Shown here piece after piece: positions 2,971-33,052 of a stretch of DNA of 35,047 bases. The translations under genes were made by a program, and so were the position numbers. Within the stretch, counting starts at the first letter, position 1. Every line of letters starts with the position of its first letter. The notes beneath the pieces are model-generated. The model was not told the origin of the DNA. It made no database searches and worked only from the letters and a program-made list of their open reading frames with translations. Origin of the DNA: a virus (Duplodnaviria > Heunggongvirae > Uroviricota > Caudoviricetes); IMG/VR virus record IMGVR_UViG_2534682060_000007, positions 1-35,047 of that record. One strand, written 5' to 3'.

Positions 2971-3004
2971 GTGTTAGAAAATACATATTAATTATCTAAC
3001 ACAA
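2971..3004. promoter_or_regulatory. operator-like inverted pair of the recurring TGTTAGA motif (site 1)
   Basis: GTGTTAGAAAAT at 2971-2982 and inverted TATCTAACACA at 2994-3004, in the 60-bp gap upstream of rdgC start. Confidence 0.45.
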
Positions 3005-3017
3005 ATGGGTGCATTTT

Positions 3018-3671
3018 CTATCCTTTCTTGAAATCGAAGTTGCTAGCAGTGGCCTGAAAGGTTCCTCCTGCCTTGAAAGCTATGTCTCCGTTAGCGGTGA
3101 CAGCAATATTTTCCCCTTTAACATTGATGTTGTTGGCTGATTTGACGTTAACACTCCCTCCTGCATTCACGATTACATCAGCCGGACCAATGATATATAT
3201 CTGCCCGGACTCATTCATGCCAATCCTTGAGCCTGCTGCCGTATTGGCAATTTCATAGCCGCCACCAGCAGTTCGTACTTCAAGAATATTGTTGCGGTGA
3301 ATAACGAAGTCTTTCGTTGCTGAGATTTGGGGGCGGGGAGGTGCTCCATCTACTTCCGGCGGCGTCCAGCCGTTGCCTTTGCCAGATGCTTCTGGTGCAA
3401 CGTTTGGAATTCCTCCCGGTGCATCCTGAGCGGCACCAACTATCATTGGGCGTCTGGTGTCTATTCGACCGTTAACATCTAAATAAGGAAACTCTACCCA
3501 GACCAGGTCACCTTTGACTGTGGGTACAAAAGCGTTTCCGATGGGTAACAGGTATTCCGCCCAGGGTAGATCGTCATCAGGAACGCCATTCCAGTCAGGT
3601 AAAACACGGACTTGAGCACGCATAAGCCCTGCCGGGTGCACAGTTCCAACAATTTGCGCTCTACGCTTCAT
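3018..3671 (-). CDS. baseplate-spike-like protein (gpV/gp5-type OB-fold N-terminus plus beta-helical repeat C-terminus)
   Basis: N-terminal pattern GTV...VRV...W...P.G...P..GD.V.V.F reminiscent of P2 gpV/Mu gp45 OB-fold; C-terminal G/N/V-rich repeats (VIVNAGGSVNVKSANNINVKGENIAVTANGDIAFKAGG); start overlaps stop of upstream gene. Confidence 0.5.
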   Translation of the reverse strand: MKRRAQIVGTVHPAGLMRAQVRVLPDWNGVPDDDLPWAEYLLPIGNAFVPTVKGDLVWVEFPYLDVNGRIDTRRPMIVGAAQDAPGGIPNVAPEASGKGNGWTPPEVDGAPPRPQISATKDFVIHRNNILEVRTAGGGYEIANTAAGSRIGMNESGQIYIIGPADVIVNAGGSVNVKSANNINVKGENIAVTANGDIAFKAGGTFQATASNFDFKKG

Positions 3672-4648
3672 TTGTTCGGCACTCCCAATATCATTCGTGT
3701 TGTGTAGCCTACGCGGTCTTCAAAGTGCGCAACATTTTTTACTATCAGCTTACGGGGCATTGATTCATCAATGCGGTTTTCCTGGTCATAGCGGTATACG
3801 ATAATCTCTATCACCATCCCCGGTTTTATATCAGGATTGCCTGCGACTTCTATATCCATTTTGGGGACGAGAGACAGCTGCATATTGCGAAGAGTTTCCA
3901 TATCAGAGTCGGATATATAACGCACTGGGAGTGAGCTATCGCCATATTCGACGTAGCCATCGGTCATGGAATACCCAACAAAACGATATTGATTCTTTGC
4001 TGTTGTCGCATGTTCCTGTTGGAGTAGGCGCATTTTGGACAAAGTGTATTCTGCTTTAGGGTTATTCCCCTCGTAGGTAAATGATGGCGTTTGCTTCATC
4101 AGATCAGCCAGGGTGTAAAAGTTAAATTCCCCCCGACATACCCAACACAATGCACCTTTGTCTCGCGCTATCTCCGAAAGCATTTTTGACGGTTTGTCAC
4201 CAGCATTCAGATGATATGTAACTGCGCGTTTTAGCACGCTGCTGGTAATTTTAAGTTTGCCGGAATATGCCTTGAATATAGCGTCTGGTGTTTTGTTGGT
4301 ATGTAAATTTGTGCGCGGGGAGGGGATCTTAAACCTGCGCACGTCTTCACTGACAGCAATAACGGTAACAACATCACCAGCCAGCATTGCAGACGTAACA
4401 AAGAAATCTGTTTTAAAAGTGCCTGCATTACCGTTTGGATCGCCCATTTCAGCCACCAGCGATGCACCGTATTTGGCTTTCCAGTCATCAATTACGGTGC
4501 CGGTAGCGTCATGAATTTCCAGTTTTAGCAAAGGGGCTTTGAGGCTGGTTTTTTCTACATATACTGCGGTAAAAATCCAGTCTCGTGGCACTTTGTTATC
4601 GTTAATGAGCACTGACTGTAGAAAATATTGTTGTAACTCCTGGGCCAC
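3668..4648 (-). CDS. hypothetical protein, third gene of coupled four-gene operon
   Basis: 326-aa ORF, start 3 nt after upstream stop; no recognisable catalytic motif. Confidence 0.6.
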   Translation of the reverse strand: MAQELQQYFLQSVLINDNKVPRDWIFTAVYVEKTSLKAPLLKLEIHDATGTVIDDWKAKYGASLVAEMGDPNGNAGTFKTDFFVTSAMLAGDVVTVIAVSEDVRRFKIPSPRTNLHTNKTPDAIFKAYSGKLKITSSVLKRAVTYHLNAGDKPSKMLSEIARDKGALCWVCRGEFNFYTLADLMKQTPSFTYEGNNPKAEYTLSKMRLLQQEHATTAKNQYRFVGYSMTDGYVEYGDSSLPVRYISDSDMETLRNMQLSLVPKMDIEVAGNPDIKPGMVIEIIVYRYDQENRIDESMPRKLIVKNVAHFEDRVGYTTRMILGVPNK

Positions 4649-4651
4649 TTA

Positions 4652-5419
4652 TCACCCCATAGATATCGATGTTTCGGTAATAATACGTTTTGCGTCCAAC
4701 TCCCATGCTGTGATCACGTCTGCAATCACACTTATCGGCGCTTGTGTGGCATAAATACGCTCTTCTCCAATTGGTGCTGAAACATCCGTAAAGCCGACTT
4801 CTTTGGCATCCTGTATCGAGCAAATCAGCGGGACCGGGACACGAACAAGGTGAGTGGTTGCTTCAAATTGTGTACCTGTCATCAGGCGAAGCCGTGCGCC
4901 CAGCGAATTACACATCAGACTCATGGTCGCTTTATCAGTTGCCATTAACGTAACGTCATACGTCAGAATGGCCTGGGTGTATTCCAGTTCTGCTAAAGGC
5001 GTTCCGGTATCTGGTTCGCAAAAACAGGCTACTTTTTTGCGGTCAATCTGCTGATCATCGTTGATATAATTGATATCCATAGTGCGTGAGATATTGACCA
5101 GGGGGAGAGCATCCCGGTTAATGTTCTGGTTTTCAGGTTTTCTCCCTTGCCCGGCATTTGCGCGACGAACTGCTTTAAGAAACTCGATCGCATTGTCGAA
5201 ACGGGCCATATAGACACGCTCTGCTGGTGGACGATTCAGGAATGACGCAAAGCGTTTTTCTTCCGGCGCGGGGGCCACCAGTAAGATATCAGAAAAAATG
5301 TTGCTGATTAGCGTCGCAAACGCGTTATCCACGTTTTCAAAGCCCGTGGTCTGGAATTTTCCTGTGCGTAAGGTTTGCCATTCACCGGTTCGCGCCAGGA
5401 GGGTTTTATTTGAAGTCAT
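4652..5419 (-). CDS. hypothetical protein, second gene of coupled four-gene operon
   Basis: 255-aa ORF, ATGA start/stop overlap with upstream gene. Confidence 0.6.
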   Translation of the reverse strand: MTSNKTLLARTGEWQTLRTGKFQTTGFENVDNAFATLISNIFSDILLVAPAPEEKRFASFLNRPPAERVYMARFDNAIEFLKAVRRANAGQGRKPENQNINRDALPLVNISRTMDINYINDDQQIDRKKVACFCEPDTGTPLAELEYTQAILTYDVTLMATDKATMSLMCNSLGARLRLMTGTQFEATTHLVRVPVPLICSIQDAKEVGFTDVSAPIGEERIYATQAPISVIADVITAWELDAKRIITETSISMG

Positions 5420-6219
5420 TCGATCACTCCGTTTTGAGTCGTATCAAAATTCCTGGCAGGTATGCAGTAGTAAAGCGAACCAACATGCTGTGTGCCGTAG
5501 CTAAAAATACGGTGCACGTACCACCAGCGGCGGGCTACGCCGTTTACCATCTCTTCATTCCATTCAAGAATTGAGCCGACGGGGACGTTATTTGCTGCAA
5601 TACGCAGAATCAGAACATCATCGGTTAAGCCATCCTGCTCACCGTCTGCGTCAATTGCATGGAAAGAGTCACGCCCGTCAGGGTTATCCAGCACATAAAC
5701 AATTTCAGGTTCCTGATAGGTCAGTTCACGCTGGTTGTTATCCAGTTCAGTGAATGACTCTTCTCCTGTTTCGTCGCTGACTACCCCAAATGTGCCAACA
5801 TCAGGTCGATATAAGAGAGCCTGAAACGCATCTGGGCTGGATTCAATAATCAGCATCCAGTCTGCGCGGATTTGGTCGTTAAAGGCTTTATGCCCGTTAT
5901 AGCGTGCTTTTAACTGTGGAGTCGGTTCTCTGCCAGCCAGGGAAGATGGAAGTATGGCTATATCTGATTCGCCAGCATCCGGAGTAAGGCCACCGTTGCT
6001 ATCAGCAAAATTATCATGGCTATCAGCTTTGGCGGCGGGTTGCTCTTCCGGAATGCTGAATGAATCCGAACCGGTATTGCCATGTTCCGGCGCGCCTCCT
6101 GCATTCGCTTCAATCGGCGCTGGCGTTTCTCTCTGCGTGCTGTCATGTTCTGACTCCTTACTTGCCAGGTTTGCATCGTCAGCAAACCATTCGTCAAAAC
6201 GGCCCATAAGCATCCTCAA
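5416..6219 (-). CDS. hypothetical protein with acidic low-complexity N-terminal region, first gene of four-gene operon
   Basis: 267-aa ORF; ORF-table start at 6219 is a TTG; more likely start is ATG at about 6207 with GAGG RBS. Confidence 0.55.
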   Translation of the reverse strand: MRMLMGRFDEWFADDANLASKESEHDSTQRETPAPIEANAGGAPEHGNTGSDSFSIPEEQPAAKADSHDNFADSNGGLTPDAGESDIAILPSSLAGREPTPQLKARYNGHKAFNDQIRADWMLIIESSPDAFQALLYRPDVGTFGVVSDETGEESFTELDNNQRELTYQEPEIVYVLDNPDGRDSFHAIDADGEQDGLTDDVLILRIAANNVPVGSILEWNEEMVNGVARRWWYVHRIFSYGTQHVGSLYYCIPARNFDTTQNGVIE

Positions 6220-6369
6220 AGGTCGATCTGTCAGGTATCGAAAGGAAGATTTTCGGGAGATTGTGATTTTGGATGAAGGAGGGGGAATTTATAAAATGCA
6301 CTTGCGCACAGTGCAACGGTGCGCTATAGTTATGGCATTCGGTAATCATCACGGAGGATCAAATGACTA

Positions 6370-6672
6370 ATGACCAAAAAAATTAACATAAAGGATTTCA
6401 GGGATGCGTGGCTTGATGATTTTTTTGAATTTTCAACACCACATAGAAAGATACCTCCTGATATTCATATGACATTGTCACGGAAGTTGGACATTATCAA
6501 TGCCGCAACTACCTGTAAGGATTTAAGATCACCACCAGGTAATCGGTATGAGGAACTGTCAGGGAAGCTAAATGGCTATTCATCAGTAAGGGTGAATAAG
6601 CAATATAGGTTAATTTTTAAGTGGGTTAACGGAAAGGCCGAGGACTTGTATCTCGACCCTCACAAATACTAA
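6370..6672 (+). CDS. higB: HigB-like killer toxin (RelE/ParE superfamily)
   Basis: 100 aa; C-terminal YRLIFKW...DLYLDPHKY pattern typical of HigB-like killer proteins; GGAGGA RBS; directly precedes HigA-type antidote. Confidence 0.7.
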   Translation: MTKKINIKDFRDAWLDDFFEFSTPHRKIPPDIHMTLSRKLDIINAATTCKDLRSPPGNRYEELSGKLNGYSSVRVNKQYRLIFKWVNGKAEDLYLDPHKY

Positions 6673-6742
6673 AACAGATACCCGGTTACGGACCGGGTTC
6701 TGACCAGAGTCCACTTAATACGCACGCTAGTAAGGGCAAAAA

Positions 6743-7081
6743 ATGAAACAGGCAACCAGAAAACCGACGACCGTAGGTGATATCCTGCTGTACGAATACC
6801 TGGAGCCGTTAGAGCTGAAGATCAACGAGTTGGCAGAAATACTTCATGTTCATCGTAACACCGTAAGTGCTCTTGTTAATAATAATCGTAAGCTAACGAT
6901 GGATATGGCATATCGCCTGGCAAAAGCATTCGATACTTCTGTAGATTTTTGGATTAATCTTCAGACCGCAGTAGACCTGTGGGAAGTCGAAAATGATATG
7001 CGCGTTCAGGAAGAGTTAAGTCGTATCAATACTGCTGAAAAATTTATTTCTCAGCGGAACCTGAATAAAAAAGCAGCCTGA
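6743..7081 (+). CDS. higA: HigA antitoxin (XRE-type HTH antidote)
   Basis: VGDILLYEYLEPLELKINELAEILHVHRNTVSALVNNNRKLTMDMAYRLAKAFDTSVDFWINLQ matches HigA/VapI-type HTH antidote pattern. Confidence 0.8.
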   Translation: MKQATRKPTTVGDILLYEYLEPLELKINELAEILHVHRNTVSALVNNNRKLTMDMAYRLAKAFDTSVDFWINLQTAVDLWEVENDMRVQEELSRINTAEKFISQRNLNKKAA

Positions 7082-7137
7082 TATAGTAAAACACATACAA
7101 AAAGCCCACTTAGCAAGTGGGCTTTCCTTTGTAATTA

Positions 7138-7497
7138 ATGAACATTAAACCTATCCGTACAGAACAAGATTATGAGGCCGCACTGCGTGCGGTCGAACCG
7201 ATGTTCGATAATGAACCGGAAATGAACACACCGGAAGGCGATTTCTTTGAGGTTATGTGTCTTCTCATTGAGGAGTACGAGAAAAAACATTACCCAATTG
7301 AGCCACCATCACCTATTGAGGCCATTAAATTCCGTATGGAACAGCAAGGACTGACCGTGAAGGATCTGGAACCGGCAATTGGTAAGTCAAACCGTGTTTA
7401 CGAAGTGCTTAATGGGACACGAAATTTGACGTTACCTATGATTCGTCGTTTACATGCCCAGTTTGGTATTCCACTGGAAAGTCTGATTGGTGTTTAA
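7138..7497 (+). CDS. second HigA-family protein (E. coli HigA/YgjM-like, C-terminal HTH) with no cognate toxin upstream
   Basis: Architecture and motifs (GLTVKDLEPAIGKSNRVYEVLNGTRNLTLPMIRRLHAQFGIPLESL) resemble the YgjM-type HigA antitoxin as recalled. Confidence 0.65.
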   Translation: MNIKPIRTEQDYEAALRAVEPMFDNEPEMNTPEGDFFEVMCLLIEEYEKKHYPIEPPSPIEAIKFRMEQQGLTVKDLEPAIGKSNRVYEVLNGTRNLTLPMIRRLHAQFGIPLESLIGV

Positions 7498-7641
7498 GTT
7501 TTGCGGTCTGGATGACCGCTGTTTTTATAAAAATAGATACTAGAAATTTGGTAGCATATATGAGTACAGATTCATCAATAAAGAAGGCAGCCGAATCAGA
7601 TAAAGAAAATGGGGGGGCCGATTGATGCCGCCAAGGATGTA

Positions 7642-8340
7642 ATGGAATATGTTATAAAGGATAAATTGTTTAATAAAGTATTTGCATATATTTTTATCTC
7701 GTTTTTAGTTGTTAATTGGCGAGATATATTAATACTAATTAAATCAAAAGAAGATATTCTTTATACACTATCAATAGTATTTGTTGGTGGCAAATTACCG
7801 TTTCTTGGTGGTGTTGTTTTATCACCGTGGGTTGCTCACTTTTTCTTGCCGTTTGTTTATGGCGTGATTGCGTCAATTGTGGCGCCAATAGTTACTCTAG
7901 CTGTATCTTACGTTACAACCAACATATATCATGAAATAAAATTTTTAGATGAAAATGCCTATGAAAATCAACTTAAAAAACAAGCAAAGAAAGCCAAAGA
8001 AAGAATTGATATTGAAATGAATGGTAAGTATAGCCAAAAAGTATTAGACGAAAGAAAAAAAGACCTGGAAGATATTGATAATGCGATTAAAAATAAACAA
8101 ATTAACTTTGATAAAAAAAGAAAAGAGTTTGCTGATAATATAAATTTAACATATGATAACATTCTCAGTTTAAGCGAATTATATAAGAATGGAGGGTTCA
8201 AAATTGAAAATCAGCAGGATTTATATAAATTCCTTTCTGCAGTAAAGGAATCATCATTCAATAACATAAATTTTGATAAATTATTCTCTGAAATTTCCCG
8301 CTTGCATTCTGAAATGCAAACTGATTTATCAGAAAAATGA
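7642..8340 (+). CDS. membrane protein with N-terminal TM helices and long K/E-rich coiled-coil C-terminus, in very AT-rich DNA
   Basis: Hydrophobic segments FAYIFISFLVVNW and LSIVFVGGKLPFLGGVVLSPWVAHFFLPFVYGVIASIVAPIVTLAVSYV; start placed at ATG 7642 with AAGGA RBS (ORF-table start 7609 lacks RBS). Confidence 0.55.
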   Translation: MEYVIKDKLFNKVFAYIFISFLVVNWRDILILIKSKEDILYTLSIVFVGGKLPFLGGVVLSPWVAHFFLPFVYGVIASIVAPIVTLAVSYVTTNIYHEIKFLDENAYENQLKKQAKKAKERIDIEMNGKYSQKVLDERKKDLEDIDNAIKNKQINFDKKRKEFADNINLTYDNILSLSELYKNGGFKIENQQDLYKFLSAVKESSFNNINFDKLFSEISRLHSEMQTDLSEK

Positions 8341-8375
8341 AAGCCTGGCATAAACCACCAGGCTATATGTGTGGT

Positions 8376-9569
8376 TTATGCTTTTTTTACATACTCCATG
8401 AACATTTTTTTAGCTTGTGCTGGTGGTGTTCCAGCCATGACAAGCGCATCAATGAACGCCTGCTTCTTCAGTGCGAACTGATCGGCCAGGCGTTGCTGAA
8501 GCTCCTTGTTTTTCTGTTTCTCACGTTGCAACGCCGCTTCTTTTGCTGCCGCCCGTTTTTTCTGTGCGTCTGACAACTTTCTGGCCTTGGTCAGTTGGTC
8601 ACGTAGCTTGTCAATCTTGCCGTTGTCCTTTGCCAGTTTTGTGCTTAAAGCGGCCTGGCGCTTCTGATAGAGCCTCCATTCTCGCTTGGCAGCGTCAACG
8701 TTCGTTTTACTGCTACGATTGCGATTAAACTCCTTCTCGTCTTCTTTTGAGAAGTGTTTGGTTGTACGGCGGCGATCGTCACCAAATGCAATTTGCGTTG
8801 CAGCCTTTTGTAGCGCACGAGCAATACTCATTTGCCAACTGGCGGACTGTAACCGCGTCATTGAGTGGATCACGTGTTTACAGGCGACGCCTTGCAGCTT
8901 CGGGTTGCGAACTTTTGGATAGGCGTATTCTTTTGGCGGTGCCAGGGCAAAGTTACCCGCAGTGGCGATGTAACGATACCAGTATTGATGACGACCACAG
9001 TCACAATCGAAAGACACTCGCCCGGCGCACAGTGATTTAGTGATTTTGAGAGCTGATTTATCGTCTTCTGCGATGTCATCAACCATCTGATCCCATTCTT
9101 CAAAGCGTATCCGGACGATATGGTGCTGGTGGACGGATATATCCGATGCTTCTACGCGGATATTAATCACATTGTGGCGAAGAGATACGGGTGTAGCTCT
9201 TTTGATACCAGATCCGTCATCCACGGCGTTATTTGCACGCTTAATATCGATTGCCTGGCTGGATGCCACCAGCTGGGCGTATGTGATGCCAGCCGTCTTG
9301 CTGTCATATTTTTCGCGCGTTTTACTCCGTAGCTTTTCGAAACCTTTCAGGTCGTCTCGCGTGAAGAACGTGCCGCCTTTTTTCTTCCCTAACTTGAGAA
9401 TATCTTCGGCGGATTTGTTCCTCAGTCTACCTGGCGTCAGCGTCCGGTGAGCTTGTCGGCGCTTACGGGTTTGTTCTTTCCTGATAAGGTCGAATAAACG
9501 CGTGAAGTCCTTAGAGGACAGGCCGTCAGTGATATAGCGCCCGTCCTGGTTTTTCAGGAAATCAGGCAT
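8376..9569 (-). CDS. SWIM-type zinc-finger protein with K/R-rich coiled-coil C-terminus
   Basis: CDCGRHQYW...GVACKHVIH fits a C-x-C...C-x-H SWIM-like motif; GGAG RBS; start overlaps stop of upstream 109-aa gene. Confidence 0.55.
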   Translation of the reverse strand: MPDFLKNQDGRYITDGLSSKDFTRLFDLIRKEQTRKRRQAHRTLTPGRLRNKSAEDILKLGKKKGGTFFTRDDLKGFEKLRSKTREKYDSKTAGITYAQLVASSQAIDIKRANNAVDDGSGIKRATPVSLRHNVINIRVEASDISVHQHHIVRIRFEEWDQMVDDIAEDDKSALKITKSLCAGRVSFDCDCGRHQYWYRYIATAGNFALAPPKEYAYPKVRNPKLQGVACKHVIHSMTRLQSASWQMSIARALQKAATQIAFGDDRRRTTKHFSKEDEKEFNRNRSSKTNVDAAKREWRLYQKRQAALSTKLAKDNGKIDKLRDQLTKARKLSDAQKKRAAAKEAALQREKQKNKELQQRLADQFALKKQAFIDALVMAGTPPAQAKKMFMEYVKKA

Positions 9570-9891: not shown

Positions 9892-10084
9892 AACAAAGCC
9901 TCTCAGTCATAACCTGGGGGAAACTGTATGCAGGGTGTGAAATGCGAGAAACAGACAGGCCACCAGTTCAGGGGGATGTGGTTCATAAATCCCCTCACTG
10001 GTGACAAGTGACTTTCATTAATCTTTATGCGGGGGCCAGCTTCATTTGCTGGCATTAGATTAAAAATTAAACGGAGTGAATGAC

Positions 10085-10873: not shown

Positions 10874-10900
10874 TGTCCTTCCTCCACGGATGACGGATAC

Positions 10901-10925: not shown

Positions 10926-11141
10926 GCTTTGGCGTTATGACTCCCTACCGCGCTTCGGCTGAAAGTTAATCGTCAAAAGAACCTTCAACGGGAGCCGTTA
11001 GCGCGATGGATTATGTGCAGTTTGTGATTTCCAAAATAGTGTCAACCACTTTTTGTGGATTTTATTTTTTGACCGAAATTTGGCCTAAATCATGTTGATG
11101 TAGTTAATTGTTTTTATAACATAAAACTTCATTTTGTTTAC

Positions 11142-13702: not shown

Positions 13703-13885
13703 AATGGCAGCCTCCTTTTGCTAATTTAAGGAGCTACCGCGTGAGGTTCCAATCTCAATGGCGGTAGCACTGACTGGGTTGGAACTACCGGCGCAAAAGG
13801 GAACCGGCCTGCCTTTCGGCAGCCCAGCCAGCACTACCATTGATCTCTGAGCTAAACGCTACGTATGGCTGTGCGATGGCATGAC
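13703..13885 (-). ncRNA. candidate structured leader / antisense-type regulatory RNA upstream of the antirepressor operon
   Basis: Several inverted repeats: 13733-13740/13761-13768 (8 bp), 13763-13778/13823-13838 (16 bp, perfect only with G-U pairs in the minus-strand transcript), GNRA hairpin near 13806-13821. Confidence 0.3.
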
Positions 13886-13887
13886 AC

Positions 13888-13910
13888 AAAAAAAGACGCT
13901 TTCGGCGTCT
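13888..13910 (-). terminator. Rho-independent terminator (minus strand)
   Basis: Hairpin agacgc/gcgtct followed on the minus strand by a 7-U run. Confidence 0.5.
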
Positions 13911-14014
13911 GTGTCGCCTTTTGCATTATCCGGGGTTCCAATCCCGGCACCCGTTTTTCTAAGGTGCCGTAGAAATATACCCCACGATAATGCCAGGGCG
14001 CAACAGTCAGTATT

Positions 14015-14500: not shown

Positions 14501-14519
14501 AAATGTTAGAAAACTAATT
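14501..14519. promoter_or_regulatory. recurring motif site 2 (AATGTTAGAAAACTAATT)
   Basis: Direct sequence match to the recurring motif; overlaps the stop codon of the 14514-15092 gene. Confidence 0.35.
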
Positions 14520-15092
14520 TATCAATTCAATCGCCATCTGATACAACGCCATTTCATCGGCATTGTGCCGTATGAAATCTGCTTTTCCGCCTATTTTTCC
14601 ATCAGCATGAACAGGGACCAGCCAGGGATATTGTTCTCGGACCTCGGCTGGCGCTGCGTACTGGTGGTGCCATTTACACAAAGGGAGGACATATTTATGC
14701 GCGTTCTCTGCCGTTCTCCCGAAGATATGGTGCAGGGATACCACTGGGCTATGTTGCCCGTGAATATGGCAGGCAATGCAGGGGAGAGTACCGATAGCGG
14801 TCTGTATCCGGCGTTCATCGGCTGTGAGTGATCTGCCCTTCAGGCCGCGTGACGTGCGTGTTTTTTTGGACGGAGCGGATACAGCTTTCTCTTTTCTCCG
14901 CTGGTCATATTGCTTTGCTTTTTCAATTCTCTTTTGCCGATATTCAGGCGATGCGGCTTTTTCTCTCGCTCGCTGCTGCTGGCGTTGAGCTTGTTGAAGG
15001 CGCTTTGCCCTTTGTTCCTCTCGCCAGGCCGGGTCAGCCAATCTTTGCATGGCTTTTTGTCTCTGTTTCTCCCAGTAGCTCTGTTTCTGCAT
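14514..15092 (-). CDS. HNH-nuclease-domain protein (NinG/YbcO-like) with K/R-rich coiled-coil N-terminus
   Basis: C-terminal CIAC...LHHIFGRTAENAHKYVLPLCKWHH fits the C-x2-C / HH / N / H HNH pattern. Confidence 0.55.
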   Translation of the reverse strand: MQKQSYWEKQRQKAMQRLADPAWREEQRAKRLQQAQRQQQRAREKAASPEYRQKRIEKAKQYDQRRKEKAVSAPSKKTRTSRGLKGRSLTADERRIQTAIGTLPCIACHIHGQHSPVVSLHHIFGRTAENAHKYVLPLCKWHHQYAAPAEVREQYPWLVPVHADGKIGGKADFIRHNADEMALYQMAIELIN

Positions 15093-15140
15093 GATGGCTG
15101 CCTCTTACTTTTCAGCGATTTTTCTATGATTGATCAAAAT

Positions 15141-15174
15141 GGTTAGATATTCAAAATTGATTTTCTAACACAAA
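15141..15174. promoter_or_regulatory. recurring motif site 3, inverted pair in divergent promoter region
   Basis: GGTTAGATAT at 15141-15150 and inverted TTTTCTAACACA at 15161-15172, between the HNH-like gene and the rightward early operon. Confidence 0.4.
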
Positions 15175-19652: not shown

Positions 19653-20341
19653 TCCAGACTATGCATGAAGTGAATTTATATAGCCGTATTGATGGTTCTG
19701 GCTACAGAAACATATGGGTTGTTGGTGATCTGCATGGTTGCTACACCAGACTGATGTCCGAACTCCATCGTGTGGATTTTGACCCGGCGCAGGATTTACT
19801 GATATCGGTTGGCGACCTTATCGATCGCGGTACTGAAAATGTCGAATGTCTGGAACTATTGCAGATGCCCTGGTTCAGGGCAGTAATGGGGAACCATGAG
19901 CGGTTGATGCTTGATGCGTTAAGTCCTGATGGCAACGTGAATAACTGGCTAATGAATGGCGGACAATGGTTCTTCATGCTGGGCACTGATCAGGAAATAT
20001 TAGCCAAGGCGCTGGTGGAGCTGGTAAAGCGTCTGCCATATATCATTGAGTTGAACACCGGGCATGAAACTATCGTTATAGCCCATGCCGACTATCCAGG
20101 TGGAGAGTACCAGTTCGGTAAGGATGTGTCGCTTTTTGATGTTGTCTGGTCGCGCAGTCGCGTCGGTGATTCGATAGATGGCATTGGTGGAGAAATCACA
20201 GGCGCAGATCGCTTTATCTTTGGGCACACACCGGTACGAAGACCAAAAGCATACTGGAATCAGCACTACATAGACACGGGCGCGGTTTTTTGCGGAAATC
20301 TGACGCTAATGCAGGTGAAGGGAGGGAAGCTTAAAGTCTGA
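19649..20341 (+). CDS. serine/threonine protein phosphatase (lambda NinI / PPP family)
   Basis: Metallophosphatase motifs GDLHGC, GDLIDRG, GNHE; start at ATG 19649 (MIQTMHEV). Confidence 0.85.
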
Positions 20342-20366
20342 TCAAATCATTTACGCACTCAAAATT

Positions 20367-20400
20367 ACGTTAGAACATTGATTTTAGTTTTCTAACATAT
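20367..20400. promoter_or_regulatory. recurring motif site 4, inverted pair
   Basis: CGTTAGAACA at about 20368-20377 and inverted GTTTTCTAACATA at 20387-20399, just upstream of the 20440 gene. Confidence 0.4.
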
Positions 20401-21435: not shown

Positions 21436-21451
21436 TGAGGTGGATCAAAAA

Positions 21452-22138
21452 ATGAAAGAACGCGGGATGATTTTTAACGATGAGATGGTCAGGGCCATCC
21501 TCGAAGGAAGGAAAACGCAGACGCGGCGGATAATGAAAAATCAGCCTGCGGAAGTTGGTCCAGAAGCACCAGTGATGGTTAGAAAAATTGGTGCAGGTTT
21601 TCAGTGGTACGGGGCTGATGGTGTAAGCAGTGTTTTCAATTGCCCCTTTGGTATCGTCGGCGATCGAATTTGGGTTCGTGAAACATGGGCGATATTAGGC
21701 AATGAAGATGGTTGCAGTGTGGACTGGAACGACAACCTTTGTCGTGACGATGAGAAGAACGCAGCAAGGATTTATCGGGCCAGTTGTGAGCAAAAGCCTG
21801 GTGATTACGGTTTGTGGTCGATACCCGATGATGCCGACTGGAAACCTCACACTGTGAATGAAAAGTTTGATGGCGGGTGGCGTCCATCAATTCACATGCC
21901 GCGCTGGGCTTCGCGTATTTTGCTGGAAATTACCGACGTGCGTGTGGAACGGCTGCGTGATATGAGCGAGGCAGATGCTAACGCAGAAGGCGCATCTCCG
22001 GCGATGTACAAAATTACGCCGCCGGAAGCTGTTTATCGCGTTGGTTTTGGTGATATCTGGCGCAGTATTTACGGGCAGGATAACTGGCTATCTAACCCGT
22101 GGGTATGGGTAATCGAGTTTAAGCGCGTTCAGGAATAA
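21452..22138 (+). CDS. ASCH/PUA-like domain protein
   Basis: N-terminal MVRAILEGRKTQTRR resembles the ASCH GxKxxExR motif (imperfect); start ATG 21452. Confidence 0.5.
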   Translation: MKERGMIFNDEMVRAILEGRKTQTRRIMKNQPAEVGPEAPVMVRKIGAGFQWYGADGVSSVFNCPFGIVGDRIWVRETWAILGNEDGCSVDWNDNLCRDDEKNAARIYRASCEQKPGDYGLWSIPDDADWKPHTVNEKFDGGWRPSIHMPRWASRILLEITDVRVERLRDMSEADANAEGASPAMYKITPPEAVYRVGFGDIWRSIYGQDNWLSNPWVWVIEFKRVQE

Positions 22139-25651: not shown

Positions 25652-25674
25652 ATTTCAATTAACACGGAGTAATT

Positions 25675-25968: not shown

Positions 25969-25992
25969 TGAAAAACAGAAAGAAAGATTGCT

Positions 25993-26202: not shown

Positions 26203-26948
26203 CAAGAATCACTAAAGAGCGTATTTCAGATATTATTTCCCGTATCGAAATGTATGGTCACGGTGCTGGATACACAGCAGATGAAGTATTGGAACTTGCC
26301 AAAATAGCTTTAGCGCCTTGCAAGGATGGTAAAGCTATGACACTGATTGACTTGTTAGTGAAGGAATTATCTAAGGGGCATGGATGGCCTGATGGAAAAG
26401 ATTTTTGCCATCTATCCATTACGATGCCAGGTAGTAGTCGCGCTACGGTTCTTTTTGGTACGCGCCATAAAAATTACCAATCATCAAAGAATTATTCCAT
26501 TGATGGCATTATTTGCGATATCAGTGACCTTGATCGCAGTGCGTTTACATCGGTTGTCACTCGTGAACAGTATGAAGCAGCTCGCATAGCGTCTCAGAAA
26601 GTCAAGTCTGAAAGTAAGGCTTACAAGTTAGATTTTGAGCAATGGCTGGAGCAGCAACGCGGGGAAATCGATGTGGACTGCGGTTGTGTGTCTGCGGAAA
26701 CATTCATGCACTGGTTGCGGGTAGCTTATGAGGCTGGGAACCATCCGGTTCTTCCGGATGGTTCCCAACAAGCGCCCAGGAAAAGCGTAAAAACCACTCT
26801 GGAAAGAGGCTATCTTGAGGCCGCATTAAAGATTAAGCCGGGCCATACGCTAGGCGTCATTGATGCCATGTTGGTTCATGAAATGGCTAAGGCTTTATTG
26901 CCGCTGGTGGCTGATAAACATGAGGCGGGCCATGCCAACGAAAGCTGA
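26199..26948 (+). CDS. hypothetical protein
   Basis: Start at ATG 26199 (AAGGA RBS, ATGA overlap with upstream stop). Confidence 0.55.
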   Translation: MTRITKERISDIISRIEMYGHGAGYTADEVLELAKIALAPCKDGKAMTLIDLLVKELSKGHGWPDGKDFCHLSITMPGSSRATVLFGTRHKNYQSSKNYSIDGIICDISDLDRSAFTSVVTREQYEAARIASQKVKSESKAYKLDFEQWLEQQRGEIDVDCGCVSAETFMHWLRVAYEAGNHPVLPDGSQQAPRKSVKTTLERGYLEAALKIKPGHTLGVIDAMLVHEMAKALLPLVADKHEAGHANES

Positions 26949-27216
26949 GTTACAGGCTCGCGTAGAGATTCTTGAAAAAGAAAATGCGAGTCTAAAAGGA
27001 ATGCTGGCGCGGGCGGAAAGGGAATTATCAGGCAAATTATTGCCAGAAGAGCTGCCACCAGCAGATATACCTGATCGAGTGTCCTGGTGGATGAAGTATT
27101 TCCGTGTACCGTGGGAGGCGTTTTGGTGCTACGACCATCGCAGATGGTGTGATGAGCTTGATAGCAGTTTCCCCTATTTTGCGGAAGGGAACTCTTGCCC
27201 TGAATGTAGGAGTTAA
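26932..27216 (+). CDS. hypothetical coiled-coil protein with C-terminal CPEC motif
   Basis: Start at internal ATG 26932 (MPTKAELQARVEILEKEN...). Confidence 0.45.
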   Translation: MPTKAELQARVEILEKENASLKGMLARAERELSGKLLPEELPPADIPDRVSWWMKYFRVPWEAFWCYDHRRWCDELDSSFPYFAEGNSCPECRS

Positions 27217-27446
27217 TGATGACCGGCGAGCTTTATTTTAAAATGTTTCTCGTTAGGAGTGCAGTCAAAATTTTTGGGCAATACAGGATCGAGAGGAATG
27301 CGATTAGGCATAGCCAATTCCTTATTAACTGATTGGCAACGAGGTTACGCTGATCCGTTGGTGATGAATAGTAGCAAAGAGCACAAAATCATCAGCGGTG
27401 GTTGATGTACGTAACGCGTTTGCACCAAAGGTGTCCATTTAATGTA

Positions 27447-27466
27447 TACTGTATAAATGAACAGTA
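27447..27466. promoter_or_regulatory. LexA (SOS) box
   Basis: TACTGTATAAATGAACAGTA = CTGT-N8-ACAG with palindromic TA flanks, about 20 bp upstream of humD start. Confidence 0.65.
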
Positions 27467-27485
27467 TTATTGAGGTGAAAACGCT

Positions 27486-27875
27486 ATGGGCTTCCCTTCT
27501 CCTGCGGCGGATTATGTTGAAAGCCGAATTTCTCTTGATCAGCAACTAATCAGGCATCCATCAGCAACCTACTTCATGCGGGCAGCTGATAGCCATCACC
27601 GTGAGGGAATATTGCAAGGTGCTTTGCTGGTGGTTGATTCTTCGCTTACTCCAGTTGATGGTTCGCTGCTTGTGTGCGCTATGGAGGGTGAATATCGCAT
27701 AAAGAGATACAGGAAGTATCCGCGCCAGCACCTGGAGGATTTAAGCACCGGGAAGAAAGAGGCGTTACCAGTAGATGACGATGGATGCACGGGAAGTAAT
27801 GCTGTTTTTGGTGTGATCACTCATGTCATCAATGATGCCCGAAGTGGGGAGTTTGATGATTGTCCGGTTATTTAA
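27486..27875 (+). CDS. humD: UmuD'-like protein lacking the N-terminal tail (P1 HumD-like)
   Basis: Starts MGFPSPAADYVE..., i.e. near the UmuD self-cleavage site; conserved FPSPAADY, HPSATYF, FGVI.HVI segments; GAGGTG RBS. Confidence 0.8.
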   Translation: MGFPSPAADYVESRISLDQQLIRHPSATYFMRAADSHHREGILQGALLVVDSSLTPVDGSLLVCAMEGEYRIKRYRKYPRQHLEDLSTGKKEALPVDDDGCTGSNAVFGVITHVINDARSGEFDDCPVI

Positions 27876-27914
27876 GCTGCAAAGTGCTGGTGCTTTATGC
27901 CTGTGAGGTTTATA

Positions 27915-27940
27915 ATTGTGTACACATAATGAGTACACGA
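27915..27940. promoter_or_regulatory. phd-doc promoter/operator region
   Basis: Palindrome TGTGTACACA (27917-27926) and related GAGTACAC half-site, immediately upstream of phd. Confidence 0.4.
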
Positions 27941-27947
27941 GGTGTTT

Positions 27948-28169
27948 ATGCAATCCATTAACTTCCGTACCGCGCGCGGCAACTTTTCTGAAGTGCTCAA
28001 CAATGTTGAAGCCGGGGAAGAGGTTGAAATCACCCGCAGAGGCCGTGAGCCAGCAGTAATTGTCAGCAAGGCTACTTTCGAAGCCTACAAAAAAGCGGCG
28101 CTGGATGCCGAATTTGCATCTCTGTTTGACACTCTGGATTCCACCAACAAGGAACTGGTTAACCGATAA
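27948..28169 (+). CDS. phd: Phd antitoxin (prevent-host-death)
   Basis: 73-aa product [73 protein letters not shown], near-identical to P1 Phd as recalled. Confidence 0.9.
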
Positions 28170-28549
28170 TGAGGCATATATCACCGGAAGAACTTATTGC
28201 GCTTCATGATGCGAATATAAGCCGCTACGGCGGACTGCCGGGCATGTCAGATCCGGGTAGGGCAGAGGCCATTATCGGGAGAGTTCAGGCCAGAGTTGCC
28301 TACGAAGAGATCACCGACCTTTTCGAAGTCTCCGCCACCTACCTGGTGGCTACGGCGAGAGGGCATATATTCAATGATGCCAATAAGCGTACCGCGCTAA
28401 ACAGTGCGCTGCTATTTCTACGCCGTAACGGGGTGCAGGTATTTGATTCACCTGAACTGGCAGACCTTACCGTAGGGGCTGCGACCGGAGAGATATCTGT
28501 ATCTTCTGTCGCCGACACGTTACGTAGATTGTATGGTTCCGCGGAGTAG
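28169..28549 (+). CDS. doc: Doc toxin (Fic-fold kinase)
   Basis: 126 aa with Fic-type motif HIFNDANKR; overlapping stop/start with phd. Confidence 0.9.
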
Positions 28550-28553
28550 ATTA

Positions 28554-28751
28554 ATGGCACGTAGATACAACAAATTGTCCCGTGAAGCGTTAAAGATGCT
28601 TCTTGATGGCGTGAGTCGCCGCGAGGTAAAGCAATACCTGATTGGTAAGCAAATTGGCGCCAGGACCGCTATTGCTGTGTTATGCCGTCAGGAAATGGTT
28701 GTGCTTAAACAGAGAATGCTTGGTAGCAGGCAAAGTGCTTCCAGTATTTGA
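28554..28751 (+). CDS. small basic hypothetical protein
   Basis: Internal ATG 28554 (MARRYNKLSREALKMLLDGV...), just after doc stop. Confidence 0.4.
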   Translation: MARRYNKLSREALKMLLDGVSRREVKQYLIGKQIGARTAIAVLCRQEMVVLKQRMLGSRQSASSI

Positions 28752-28755
28752 AAAG

Positions 28756-28786
28756 AAGCCCGCCATACCAAGCGGGCTTTTTGTTA
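28756..28786. terminator. Rho-independent terminator between convergent operons
   Basis: Stem gcccgc/gcgggc with 7-nt loop followed by TTTTTGTTATTT. Confidence 0.55.
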
Positions 28787-29560
28787 TTTCACCTCTTCTG
28801 CCGCTGTATCATTGGACTGTTCTTCTTTGGCCCGTTCTGCAATCGCCGCACGGCATTTCGCCCTGGCTATAGCGATTGCTTCAGCTCGCACATCGTCTGG
28901 AATCGTTGACGTGATATACATATCCAGTTCTTCGGCACGGAATACTGTTTGGTCCAGATATTCGCGTAGCATCCAGGTAAATTCGAAATCACACGCGATA
29001 ATCTCTGCGCTACCTTCTGCACCATTTGGGAAATGAATAAATGCCTGTTTAGCCAAACCGATAACACGACATGCGGTTGCCAAAACAGCGACAACCAGGT
29101 TTACATTTTCACACGCTACGGGCTGATTAACGCCGGAGATTACTCCATTTAACTGTCGGTTATATGGAAGGTAGTTTGAGATGCGTTCTACGCGCCATGT
29201 GCCAGTCAGGCTGCCATTTTTAAAGATAATTGGTGTAACGGATAGCCCAAGCTCGCGTATAAGTCGTTGCGCTATAGCAGGATCATTAAACAGGTCTAAT
29301 GCTACACATTCGAAAGACTGCGCAAGGGTAAACAGTTCTTCCAGAGAGTAGTCTTTGCCCCTGGCGGTGATGTAACGACGAACGCCGCTGTCTGCATCAC
29401 TCCATATAGCTACGCCATGCTCTTCATTCAGCTCTTCATTAAAGCCGAGATACGTCATGATAGTGCGTTCAATCGTGTCAAACGGCAGTGACATGTCGGC
29501 GTTAACAGCCACCAGCAGGCCATTACGCAAGCGGTATTGAATTGTTTTGGTGCTTTCCAT
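28784..29560 (-). CDS. hypothetical protein
   Basis: 258-aa ORF, last gene of the leftward operon. Confidence 0.55.
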   Translation of the reverse strand: MESTKTIQYRLRNGLLVAVNADMSLPFDTIERTIMTYLGFNEELNEEHGVAIWSDADSGVRRYITARGKDYSLEELFTLAQSFECVALDLFNDPAIAQRLIRELGLSVTPIIFKNGSLTGTWRVERISNYLPYNRQLNGVISGVNQPVACENVNLVVAVLATACRVIGLAKQAFIHFPNGAEGSAEIIACDFEFTWMLREYLDQTVFRAEELDMYITSTIPDDVRAEAIAIARAKCRAAIAERAKEEQSNDTAAEEVK

Positions 29561-29566
29561 GTCAAA

Positions 29567-30244
29567 TCACTCCACTACAAACCAGTCACATGCCAGTAAG
29601 TCGCCTACAGAAGGAACCCACGGAACAACTACACCTTGTGCATTTTTTAAGGCGAAATAAGCACCATACGGAACGAGGTCGCCGGGGAAATATCCCTTAA
29701 TGGCTTCCATTCGTGCCGGGTACTGTCCTTCAGGAACCAGCCAGCAGAATTGGTTTTCGCCGTTCCACCCGCGTCGAGCAACTTTCTTGCCATCCTTCAG
29801 CCACATCAGCGCGTCAGAAAAGTCGGCTGCTTCAAGGTCGATTTCTTCTTGCTGGATGGTGATGCCACCAGCAGAAATAGTTACGCTCCCGGTAAGATTA
29901 ATCATCACGCCGTTGTCATCCGTAATGATGACCGTGGTTCCATTTTTGGAGGCGTCGTTAACCAGGCCATAGCGTTCCTCAAATGGTTTCTCCGGGGCAT
30001 AGAACAGATAACCGTTTTCATAAACGATCAGATACCCGCCAGTTTTTGGTCGGTGTTTTTGTAAAAACATTGCGTCAACACAAACTGTTGCCCCTTTTGG
30101 TTCAACGAGTTCGATGCAGCCCCACAGTGGGGCATCAGTTACTCCGAAAATAACAACATTTTTGATTTTCGATGCACTAACGTTTTTGTGAGCTTTGTAT
30201 TTGGGAAGGAACTTAAAAAGCTCTTTCGTTGCCATGTTATTCAT
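29567..30244 (-). CDS. two-domain protein with C-terminal DUF2829 (Tad2-like) domain
   Basis: C-terminal FSDALMWLKDGKKVARRGWNGENQFCWLVPEG...PWVPSVGDLLACDWFVVE matches the DUF2829 hallmark (GKKV.R.GWNG) as recalled. Confidence 0.55.
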   Translation of the reverse strand: MNNMATKELFKFLPKYKAHKNVSASKIKNVVIFGVTDAPLWGCIELVEPKGATVCVDAMFLQKHRPKTGGYLIVYENGYLFYAPEKPFEERYGLVNDASKNGTTVIITDDNGVMINLTGSVTISAGGITIQQEEIDLEAADFSDALMWLKDGKKVARRGWNGENQFCWLVPEGQYPARMEAIKGYFPGDLVPYGAYFALKNAQGVVVPWVPSVGDLLACDWFVVE

Positions 30245-30258
30245 AGTCTTTTCTCTGC

Positions 30259-30753
30259 TTATAACTTTTCGTACTGAAGCGGTGAACGCTTAATTTCAAA
30301 GTGGCCTTCCGATGTGCTACCAAAGCCACCAGCACCACGTTCCGTTTCGTTGAGTTCCTCAACCTCGACTAGTGAGACTTGTTCAACACGCTCAAAAATT
30401 CCTTGCATGACAGCCATTCCAGGCTTGAGACAAACGCCTTCCCCGCCGGGATCAGTAATCAGTTTTGCCATGATTTCACCGCGATAATCGGAGTCGATAA
30501 TTCCTACGCAGTTAGCCAGGCGAGTATGTTTTTTGCAGCCCAATCCGGATCGCGGATAGAGTTTCAGACACCAGCCGGGCGGGATCTCCATAGCCAGTCC
30601 GGTATACACCCACCAGCTTGAGGAAATTGCACCATTGCTATCGACGCATGGTTTTATTTCAACAGCCTCAAAATCCATCGCCGCCGATCCGGAGGTGGCA
30701 TAAGCTGGAAGTTTTGCTGCCGGATGTAGGCGTTTCACTTTTACGTAAATCAT
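30259..30753 (-). CDS. dut: dUTP diphosphatase
   Basis: dUTPase motifs AYATSGSAAMDF, RSGLG, IIDSDYRGEI, RGAGGFGSTS. Confidence 0.85.
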   Translation of the reverse strand: MIYVKVKRLHPAAKLPAYATSGSAAMDFEAVEIKPCVDSNGAISSSWWVYTGLAMEIPPGWCLKLYPRSGLGCKKHTRLANCVGIIDSDYRGEIMAKLITDPGGEGVCLKPGMAVMQGIFERVEQVSLVEVEELNETERGAGGFGSTSEGHFEIKRSPLQYEKL

Positions 30754-31226
30754 TGTTTTTTAGCTCTCTGCGTGAAGGTGTAAACCCGACGTTTGATATG
30801 TGGAACGGTAGGAACAGGAAGACAGGAACTTTCAATAACCCCTTGCCCCTCCAGCGATCGCACCGCCCGCAAGAACTGCGACGTGTCGCCGCCAAACTGG
30901 CGGGCATAGGTGCTGCCGTTATGAAGTATTTGAGCTATTACCCGAGCTTTTGTCTGGCTGTCACGATATGCGAATAGCCGCACGGCCTCTTCTGGCGCAA
31001 TCGCTAACTGATAGCCTTTCCCGGCACGGTGTCGAATGAATCCATGCGCCAGTAGGTTTTTGAGTTCGTTACGAGTGCGAACAGATCCGTAATCCAGGAA
31101 GTGTGGATTGATAACGACTGGCTTAAACCATTCCGTAGGTGCTTTAGCTAATAGAGCTAACAGCTTCCCGGATAATTCTGGATAGGAAGACGGGTAACAA
31201 TTCAGAGATGGGTAATAAGTTTTCAC
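30750..31226 (-). CDS. hypothetical protein
   Basis: 158-aa ORF, ATGA-type overlap with dut. Confidence 0.5.
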   Translation of the reverse strand: MKTYYPSLNCYPSSYPELSGKLLALLAKAPTEWFKPVVINPHFLDYGSVRTRNELKNLLAHGFIRHRAGKGYQLAIAPEEAVRLFAYRDSQTKARVIAQILHNGSTYARQFGGDTSQFLRAVRSLEGQGVIESSCLPVPTVPHIKRRVYTFTQRAKKQ

Positions 31227-31567
31227 CGACGCCCCCTTGCAGGATATCGACCTGCATTAGTATCCGGTGCAATAAAGCCGGTAGTGGGGCGAGTGAAAGC
31301 GAGATTAATCTTCTCGACCATAGTGCGATAATTTTCCTGATAGTGGGCCAGGAGTTTTTCGGCGGCAATGATGGTTACTTTCCGGACGTAGCTTTCTGCT
31401 TCCTCCAGATTTCGCCAGTTTTTTTCGAGGGTAAACACAGGGACGGCCTCAAGCCCGGTCATGATGCCGAACACAACGACAGCATGACTGTTCTTAACAC
31501 CAGCGGCGAAGGTTACGGTGTAACAATCCACCTTGAAGCGTCTTGATTCCGTGATTTGACTCTGCAA
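31223..31567 (-). CDS. hypothetical protein
   Basis: 114-aa ORF, first gene after motif site 5. Confidence 0.5.
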   Translation of the reverse strand: MQSQITESRRFKVDCYTVTFAAGVKNSHAVVVFGIMTGLEAVPVFTLEKNWRNLEEAESYVRKVTIIAAEKLLAHYQENYRTMVEKINLAFTRPTTGFIAPDTNAGRYPARGRR

Positions 31568-31621
31568 AGCACCCTCCTAAATAGGCGAGGGTACTTTACA
31601 GCAAAGGCGTCAATCTAAAAA

Positions 31622-31640
31622 GATGTGTTAGAAATTTAAT
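31622..31640. promoter_or_regulatory. recurring motif site 5 (GATGTGTTAGAAATTTAATT)
   Basis: In the 73-bp gap between the Cre-like gene and the downstream operon. Confidence 0.4.
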
Positions 31641-32669
31641 TTACGAATCCATCAGGCGGCTATTAGCCCCCACAGACACGCCGCCACGGCGAAGATACCG
31701 CATAAGTGTTTCCGGTTTCTTCCAGGTTCCTTCCTGCATGATCTCCACCATAGACACCTGCTTTTCAGCCATATCAATAGCGGCCCCGACACGTGCACTA
31801 TGCCCGGTCCACGTCCGGTATCTTCCTTTGTTTGGCGTAGCATCTCTTTTATTCAGCAACACCCAGGCGTCGCTGAATATTTTCTCCATTGCAGGTGCAG
31901 TAAGGGGCGTTGTCGTGATCCTGGCCTTATTGCTACGGTGTATCGGCGGGAACAGCACTGCGTCAGGATGTTCGCGAAGCCCGGAAACATCCAGCCAGTC
32001 ATTCAGCACAGCGGTAGTGCGACGGGAAAGCACCTTATCAAGCCCGGCGGCGGTCGTTATTGTCTTCGTGTGTGAAATATGTAGCGTGACAGTGTCACCT
32101 GTTTGGTCCAGATCTCCTACACGAATACGCGAGATTTCCGACATACGCATCAGCGTATTGTATGCAACAAAGAGAAAAGCCCGGTTGCGCAGGTCCACCA
32201 GCCGTTCTGACCTGGACAACAGGACGTCGAGCAGTTTCAGATCGTCCCACCGCAGCGGTATAGCCTGGCCTGTTCGTTCGCCTTTTTCAGTTGCCGCTTC
32301 GCGCCGGATGCGCCGCATAGCCAGAGAAACACTTTTATCATCCGAAAGTGGCGGAAGACCACAATGCGAAAGCAGCATGTTCAGCATGGCGTAGTGCTTA
32401 TCAATGGTGGTCGAAGCCAGATCGGCATCATGCAGCTGAAGAAAATACTCGCGGGCCATTTCTGGTGAGATCGGAAACCAGGCAAGCTGGCGAGCGTGAC
32501 ACCAGCGCGCCCAGGAATGAAACACCAACCGGAGGTCGCGCAGAGTATTCGGCGCATAAGCCCCCTGGTCATTCATGAACCGCATAAAGTTTTCTGCGGC
32601 TTCCTGGTACTCTTTGCCAATGTTGCGCAGAAAACCACCGGAACTGCCAGAGATAATTAATTCACTCAT
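31641..32669 (-). CDS. Cre-like tyrosine site-specific recombinase
   Basis: Collinear similarity to P1 Cre as recalled: SWARWC, WFP, VSLAMRRIRRE, AYNTLMRMSEISRIRVGDL, HISHTKT, WTGHSARVGAAIDMA, EIMQEGTW, catalytic Tyr in LMRYLRR. Confidence 0.85.
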   Translation of the reverse strand: MSELIISGSSGGFLRNIGKEYQEAAENFMRFMNDQGAYAPNTLRDLRLVFHSWARWCHARQLAWFPISPEMAREYFLQLHDADLASTTIDKHYAMLNMLLSHCGLPPLSDDKSVSLAMRRIRREAATEKGERTGQAIPLRWDDLKLLDVLLSRSERLVDLRNRAFLFVAYNTLMRMSEISRIRVGDLDQTGDTVTLHISHTKTITTAAGLDKVLSRRTTAVLNDWLDVSGLREHPDAVLFPPIHRSNKARITTTPLTAPAMEKIFSDAWVLLNKRDATPNKGRYRTWTGHSARVGAAIDMAEKQVSMVEIMQEGTWKKPETLMRYLRRGGVSVGANSRLMDS

Positions 32670-32820
32670 GAAACTATTTCACCTCTATATACAGATGACG
32701 CTACGCGAAAAATATAAAAATGACAGGGTAGCTATAAGTTAATTTTCAAAATACAAGCCTTTGATTCGAGGCACGTATTTTCAGTGATGTCAACACTGTT
32801 CATCTACACATGATTATAGC

Positions 32821-32854
32821 CTAACTTTAAATAATGCCAATTATTTAAAGTTAT
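32821..32854. other. candidate lox-like recombination site (13-bp inverted arms, 8-bp spacer)
   Basis: CTAACTTTAAATA-ATGCCAAT-TATTTAAAGTTAT; arms match 12/13 to each other and 10/13 to the loxP arm ATAACTTCGTATA; about 150 bp upstream of the Cre-like start. Confidence 0.45.
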
Positions 32855-33032
32855 AAAATGGCGATTTTTTTTAATCCATCACAGATTGATTGCTGACCAG
32901 TAACACGTTGCCTTCATGGTCTTTAATTTGCGAAGCGTGGTTTATACAGTTGGTTTTCTAAAATTGATGACAAAAAATCACAGTTCGATCCTTTACTCAC
33001 TCTGTTATTCGACATAAATTTGTCATAGTAAT

Positions 33033-33052
33033 TTTATGTTAGAAAACTAAAT
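33033..33052. promoter_or_regulatory. recurring motif site 6 (TTTATGTTAGAAAACTAAAT)
   Basis: About 13 bp upstream of the 33065 start codon; a related TTTTCTAAAATTGA lies at about 32955-32970. Confidence 0.4.

Follow-up and report, generated by a model that had tools for sequence, protein, structure and literature searches.

Phage P1 represses repL, lpa and further lytic functions through its C1 protein, which binds to 22 dispersed operators; their consensus is asymmetric and 17 bp long (PMC8546580). In the present work we analyzed a stretch of 35,047 nucleotides of viral DNA (IMG/VR virus record IMGVR_UViG_2534682060_000007, positions 1 to 35,047; the whole stretch is called the window in the following). 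An earlier inspection of the letters without database searches, the sequence-only reading, had noticed an AT-rich asymmetric motif in at least six promoter regions of this DNA and had compared it with the operators of P1. The window belongs to a D6-like plasmid prophage of the P1 family: its sequence identity is 95.6-98.4% with phage D6 and 96-98% with numerous plasmids of E. coli and Salmonella that are about 92 kb in size. The comparisons described below make it very probable that the D6-type C1 repressor, a protein of 345 amino acids encoded at 33065-34102 on the plus strand, uses the motif sites as its operators.

Searching the 35-kb window for the core TGTTAGAAAAY, we found five exact matches (2972-2982, 14504-14514 and 33037-33047 on the plus strand, 15160-15170 and 20387-20397 on the minus strand), compared with 0.05 expected from dinucleotide-preserving shuffles, and none of 100 shuffles reached five. 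If one mismatch was allowed, the count was eight against 1.3 expected, the additional sites being 2991-3001 (-), 31626-31636 (+) and 32953-32963 (-). A weight matrix built from these eight sites added the weak partner half-sites 15141 (+) and 20368 (+), which gives a total of 10 sites across six intergenic loci including three inverted pairs. The pairs (2972/2992, 15141/15161 and 20368/20388) have the same geometry: in each, the two cores begin at an offset of 20 nt, and the distance from the outer TGTTAG to CTAACA is 30 bp. None of the sites in the window is located inside a gene body; two of them, at 14504 and 31626, are adjacent to stop codons or overlap them. In an unbiased count TGTTAGAAAA was the second-ranked 10-mer of the window, after a word containing Chi. 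According to the information profile of the pooled sites, the element is asymmetric and about 19 bp long, T.TGTTAGAAAA(Y)TAAWTT. All coordinates of the sequence-only reading were reproduced, and so was the asymmetric AT-rich consensus, except that the element is slightly longer than had been described. A LexA/SOS box (palindromic CTGT-N8-ACAG), already dismissed by that reading, was ruled out as the identity of the motif, as the sites are asymmetric and the CTG...CAG arms are missing.

All ten sites of the window are also present in D6. The whole D6 genome contains 14 sites of at least 15 bits, and 30 shuffles gave 0-2 each. Although 89.5% of the genome is coding, each of the 15 sites examined is intergenic (binomial P about 2e-15). 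The positions of these sites were compared with those of the P1 operators, which were taken from the names annotated in the P1 record and are experimentally defined C1 operators. The pair preceding the hrdC(rdgC)-methylase operon is by position an analogue of P1 Odmt, which lies upstream of uhr-hrdC-dmt; it consists of a half-site with the exact core at 2970-2988 (+; 30 bits; D6 copy at 64114) and a half-site at 2985-3003 (-), which covers part of a -10-like GATAAT at 2996-2991. The single putative operator at 14502-14520 (+; exact core), where the ref homologue has its stop codon, is the positional analogue of P1 Omat (2628-2645), which overlaps the ref stop codon at 2637 in the identical manner. 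Upstream of ref, in the divergent promoter region shared with the early operon, a strong half-site with the exact core (15154-15172, -) is the analogue of P1 Oref and overlaps -35-like hexamers of both divergent promoters; the weak half-site next to it (15139-15157, +; 11 bits) shows the 20-nt offset of the other pairs. The pair between ppp and a DUF968/pdcB-like gene has the same geometry, with a weak half-site at 20366-20384 (+; 15.6 bits) and a strong one with the exact core at 20381-20399 (-) within the spacer of the candidate promoter TTGATT-17-TATTTT. Another single putative operator closely follows the stop codon of dre and precedes the leftward orf117-orf116-dut operon (31624-31642, +). 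Two sites in the c1 promoter correspond to the c1/coi operator set of P1: an inverted distal site (32947-32965, -) and, at a distance of 84 bp, a proximal site with the exact core (33035-33053, +), whose end is separated from the c1 start codon by about 12 nt and which is a probable autoregulation site. The remaining equivalents in D6 are sites upstream of lpa (P1 Olpa), upstream of repL (OrepL), upstream of an icd-antirepressor module (Oc4) and at pmgR/pmgS (OpmgR).

The arrangement therefore resembles the immC system of P1 and P7 in having many asymmetric sites of about 17-19 bp that are spread over about 90 kb at early promoters of orthologous genes. It also shares overlapping inverted, 'divalent' operators: in P1 Obanab two 17-mers in inverted orientation overlap by their AT-rich ends, an architecture as in the three D6-type pairs, except that the D6-type pairs span about 34 bp and those of P1 28 bp. 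The number of sites is about 15 in D6 and 22 in P1. The main difference is the operator word itself, T.TGTTAGAAAAYTAAWTT in the D6 type in contrast to ATTGCTCTAATAAATTT in P1, the pentamer TCTAA/TTAGA being the only common part. The P1 operator ATTGCTCTAATAAATTT gave no match in the window or in D6 with up to three mismatches, and its core TGCTCTAATAA is absent from both; conversely, P1 contains no D6-type site of at least 13 bits. The motif thus differs from the P1 C1 operator, as the sequence-only reading had stated. Within the D6-type backbone, blocks 89-97% identical to P1 are located at 19684-20322, 21450-21969 and 27237-28735 (ppp, pmgT and humD-phd-doc-pdcA). We considered P1-type operators as relics in these mosaic blocks and found none. 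The edges of the blocks are at or inside coding sequence and exclude the P1 operators; the pmgT block begins about 190 bp downstream of OpmgT.

The gene of the candidate repressor is located between rox/dre and pacB, as c1 of P1 is located between the lox recombinase module and pacB. The GenBank records AY753669 and MF356679 already name this open reading frame 'C1, similar to the C1 repressor of P1' and annotate its neighbour as Dre recombinase with a rox site. The Cre/lox-like module that had been seen in the letters is accordingly Dre together with an exact 32-bp rox site (32822-32853, +), and the P1-like humD-phd-doc genes are indeed 97% identical to P1. The proposal that the 345-aa protein occupies the position of c1 and regulates the motif is supported by homology and co-variation; it is no discovery, as the name C1 was already in GenBank. 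Compared with P1 C1 the protein shows 21% identity over 240 aa (BLASTP, E 3e-8). Both proteins belong to phrog_1678 (4e-170 and 3e-140) and, according to precomputed assignments, to Pfam PF27008. These similarities indicate that the 345-aa protein is a true, deeply diverged homologue of P1 C1 on a distant branch of the family and no equivalog. The family is small and makes up 130 clusters at 50% identity in a set of 1.84 billion representatives. Phage-plasmids of the D6 type are common in Enterobacteriaceae, this c1 being present in 112 PLSDB plasmids of E. coli, Salmonella and Shigella.

The D6-type C1 is 62 residues longer than P1 C1. Residues 241-345 (33785-34099) form a predicted helical C-terminal extension of about 100 residues with clade-invariant positions such as D297 and S307-G308-D309, whereas P1-type C1 has a short basic tail. 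A fused Lxc as the origin of the extension was rejected, since there is no similarity to Lxc. Using the P1 proteins as queries in tblastn, Coi, Lxc and Ant1 gave no match below E 0.6 in D6 or the window, and D6-type elements have no detectable equivalent of Ant1/2. Between rox and c1 the plus strand contains no open reading frame of at least 50 aa. Because the sites do not match the P1 operator consensus and Coi and Lxc are not detected, the D6-type system appears to be a separate specificity (immunity) group inside the family of P1-type C1 repressors.

If the motif is read by C1, both should change together in related elements. Homologues 51%, 48%, 48% and 44% identical to the window C1 are encoded on the contigs L008, L010, L011 and L009, respectively, which are syntenic for the recombinase, c1, pacB, pacA and lpa. 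The word TGTTAGAAAA is the top 10-mer in L008 (six copies) and L011 (five copies) and ranks third in L009 (four copies). In all four relatives the core is kept at the same promoters, whereas the flanks cannot be aligned. The core is found about 18-25 nt before the c1 start codon, and an inverted core lies further upstream at a spacing of 84 bp in the window, L008 and L011 and of 96 bp in L009. On the sequence level, the proximal and the distal c1-promoter site are conserved in five D6-clade elements, so that the copies at the promoter of the 345-aa gene, pointed out by the sequence-only reading, recur in four diverged relatives. The core is also present just beyond the stop codon of the recombinase (same place in L008, L009 and L011), upstream of the DUF968 gene (in L009) and upstream of lpa; the lpa site of L010 is a pair with the same 20-nt offset. 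In contrast, two P1-clade elements whose C1 is 53-58% identical to that of P1 carry ATTGCTCTAAT at the equivalent places and no D6-type sites. There are thus two repressor clades and two operator words; each word is constant inside its own clade, and the two do not occur together.

Taken together, motif enrichment, strictly intergenic placement, the fixed geometry of the pairs, positional equivalence with P1 operators and co-variation with the repressor clade argue for C1 operators. In the plasmid-prophage state C1 would bind each asymmetric site of about 19 bp, probably with one monomer per site and with two monomers at the overlapping inverted pairs. By analogy with P1, bound C1 would occlude the sigma-70 promoters of early and lytic functions. 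The presumed targets in the window are the hrdC-methylase operon, ref, the long rightward early operon, the pdcB-like operon, the dut operon and the immI antirepressor module; outside the window they would include lpa, repL, the second icd-ant module and pmgS. The two sites at the c1 promoter would serve autoregulation. In P1, autoregulation of c1 reportedly involves C1-mediated looping between operators.

Several points weigh against this assignment. Since the 345-aa protein scored 25.6 bits in the NCBI equivalog model of P1 C1, far below the cutoff of 500, C1 function is transferred over about 21% identity. Three of the sites are too weak on their sequence alone: 15141 (11 bits) is inside the range of the shuffles and 20368 (15.6 bits) is near it, and a seventh locus, the uncertain candidate TGTTATAAAAAC between mat and a simB-like gene (11101-11125, -; D6 copy at 72194), is also within the range of the shuffles with 13.4 bits. 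Strict sigma-70 scans yielded few promoters, and none for the site of the dut operon; the promoter overlaps hence rest on a relaxed scan, in which most sites overlap a candidate -35, spacer or -10 and the c1-proximal site lies between a candidate promoter and the c1 start codon. These promoter assignments are weak predictions, in effect consensus-level guesses. The target of the 14504 site is uncertain because c4 is about 660 nt away and a terminator-like hairpin is located in between. Finally, the support for the whole interpretation is comparative, and from it we infer C1 binding to the D6-type sites, repression, the monomer stoichiometry and the promoter controlled by each site.

A different trans-factor encoded on the element may formally take the place of C1. 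The sites might be bound by a HigA-like or pmgF-like transcriptional regulator, by the Rha-type antirepressor or by a nucleoid protein of the host, with C1 recognizing something else; further predicted DNA-binding proteins are encoded on the element, and the motif is AT-rich like many sites of nucleoid proteins. We consider this unlikely, as the motif follows the C1 clade across six independent elements and is located at the same promoters as the experimentally established C1 sites of P1. Moreover, no alternative repeated word was found at the c1 promoter, and a host factor would not change its word between P1-type and D6-type elements in the same hosts.

It is very unlikely that the motif is a shared promoter element, for example an early-promoter box, an UP-like or -10-like element or the box of an activator such as Lpa. 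All sites are near gene starts, and at several of them the core and its flank, read as the reverse complement, contain a -10-like TAACAT or GATAAT; nevertheless, both orientations toward the downstream gene are represented, the distances vary and some sites lie on stop codons, and three inverted overlapping pairs with fixed spacing are not promoter-like. The P1 Lpa late box, AAGTGACTT-N-TAnAAT, is a different word; late morphogenetic operons lack the motif, which instead marks early genes and the upstream regions of lpa and c1 themselves. A P1 Lpa-dependent late promoter (-22 box AAGTGACTT followed by a -10) was accordingly rejected as the identity of the motif. The strict pattern has a single match in the window, AAGTGACTTTCATTAATCT at 10006-10024 (+) between a gp26-like gene and mat, which is unrelated to the motif sites.

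The C1 family has no solved structure, and we therefore compared predicted models with known structures. In Foldseek the only hits of the AlphaFold model of the D6-type C1 with E at or below 1e-3 were Tus (1.4e-7). A separate model of a P1-type C1 (20 sequences, five runs with a pLDDT of 75-80 each) likewise matched only Tus (1.3e-8 to 3.8e-8; next hit 0.19). The overall pLDDT of the models is about 80, and as predicted models they reach TM-scores of 0.34-0.46 against Tus. Tus is thus the sole solved structure matching the models of both C1 clades. The Tus protein is monomeric, and its binding to the site is asymmetric (PMC10331603). In a 101-sequence alignment of the C1 family the near-invariant residues R41, P88, R159 and G187 are located on or beside beta-strands of the model. 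Tus reads Ter, a site of about 20 bp, with its interdomain beta-strands, and P1 C1 is reportedly a monomer. On the level of sequence, hhalign of C1 against Tus gave a probability of 0.2% (9 sequences) and 1.2% (101-sequence profile), no member of the C1 family matched the Pfam Tus/Ter models and a sequence search of the PDB with C1 gave no match; with these results a homology of C1 and Tus detectable from sequence was rejected. We regard the Tus-like fold of C1 as a moderately supported prediction, not as a finding. That the whole family, of the P1 as well as the D6 type, is Tus-like and that a monomer reads the long asymmetric site via the strands carrying R41, R159 and G187 is a tentative suggestion, to which we give somewhat less than an even chance.

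There is also a resemblance between the binding sites. The c1-proximal site TATGTTAGAAAACTAAA (33033-33055) resembles E. coli TerB TATGTTGTAACTAAA (positions 2227-2249 of our locus L012) save for a 2-nt difference in length and one mismatch, and in both cases 11-14 nt separate the site from the start codon of the (predicted) binding protein's gene, TerB lying in the promoter region of tus. The resemblance of the sites to Ter exceeds that of shuffles at two of six sites only and is likely a coincidence. Polar replication-fork barriers or pause sites of a Tus-like protein, with secondary effects on transcription, are an extremely unlikely explanation in spite of the models matching only Tus and of TATGTT and AACTAAA shared by the c1-proximal site and TerB, because the orientations alternate with no replication- or gene-related bias relative to oriR, repL and the downstream genes, the sites are at promoters and include three head-to-head pairs, and P1 C1 is an established transcriptional repressor (PMC8546580). 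The proposed role of the D6-type C1 is likewise transcriptional repression.

The element contains further features beside the putative C1 operators. As in P1 and P7, a module of c4, icd and antirepressor is found in the neighbourhood. The c4 antisense RNA (13757-13844, -; Rfam RF01695, 76.7 bits), icd and a Rha-type antirepressor gene are present in the window, the nearest site being the one at 14504, upstream of c4. Leftward transcription from this site leads to orf86/85, an isrK-like RNA, c4, icd and ant. The isrK-like Hfq-binding small RNA (62.5 bits, Rfam) is located directly upstream of c4, and both precede icd and the Rha-type antirepressor gene (13757-13967, -). A second icd-antirepressor module is found elsewhere in D6, with a site about 340 nt upstream of its icd.

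The rox region (32813-32853) contains an 11/12 sigma-70-like promoter, TTGGCA-16-TATAAT, on the minus strand (32840-32813), directed toward dre. Therefore the recombination site and the predicted promoter of the recombinase overlap. At 6370-7497, two genes of HigA-like antitoxins/transcriptional regulators follow a RelE/ParE-family toxin gene and form, according to the annotation of relatives, a second toxin-antitoxin module besides phd-doc. Chi (GCTGGTGG) occurs in 28 copies in the window compared with 0.88 expected (none of 100 shuffles reached 28), 11 on the plus and 17 on the minus strand and along the whole window (652, 2082, 3262 ... 34225). Words containing Chi also lead the k-mer counts of three related loci, L009, L013 and L014. 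Chi enrichment has been reported for P1 as well.

The identity of C1 was already known from GenBank, whereas the operator word carries no annotation in the records examined, AY753669 and MF356679 listing no operators. We found no mention of the word in the literature, in a search that did not cover the D6 papers of Sauer & McDermott (2004) and Gilcrease & Casjens (2018), so a prior description is possible. Queries for 'C1 operator' together with D6-like phages, or for Tus together with C1, returned nothing relevant.

The overall design is the one expected for the P1 family, the differences being the sequence of the sites and the predicted Tus-like fold of the repressor. The operator word would define the C1 regulon and provide a simple sequence marker for the lysis-lysogeny switch. 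Because the D6-type and the P1 operators are mutually exclusive, D6-type elements are predicted to be heteroimmune with P1. The comparison of the two clades offers a clean natural case in which a repressor and about 15-22 dispersed sites shift their specificity together, and C1 with its operator could be used as an orthogonal repressor/operator pair for engineering beside Dre/rox. If the Tus-like fold is true, it would give the first structural rationale for the reading of an asymmetric site by C1 and would explain the long-noted non-palindromic operator without a recognizable helix-turn-helix. In that case C1-operator complexes may act as orientation-dependent roadblocks, and a master immunity repressor and the chromosomal replication terminator would share a DNA-recognition fold and possibly ancestry.

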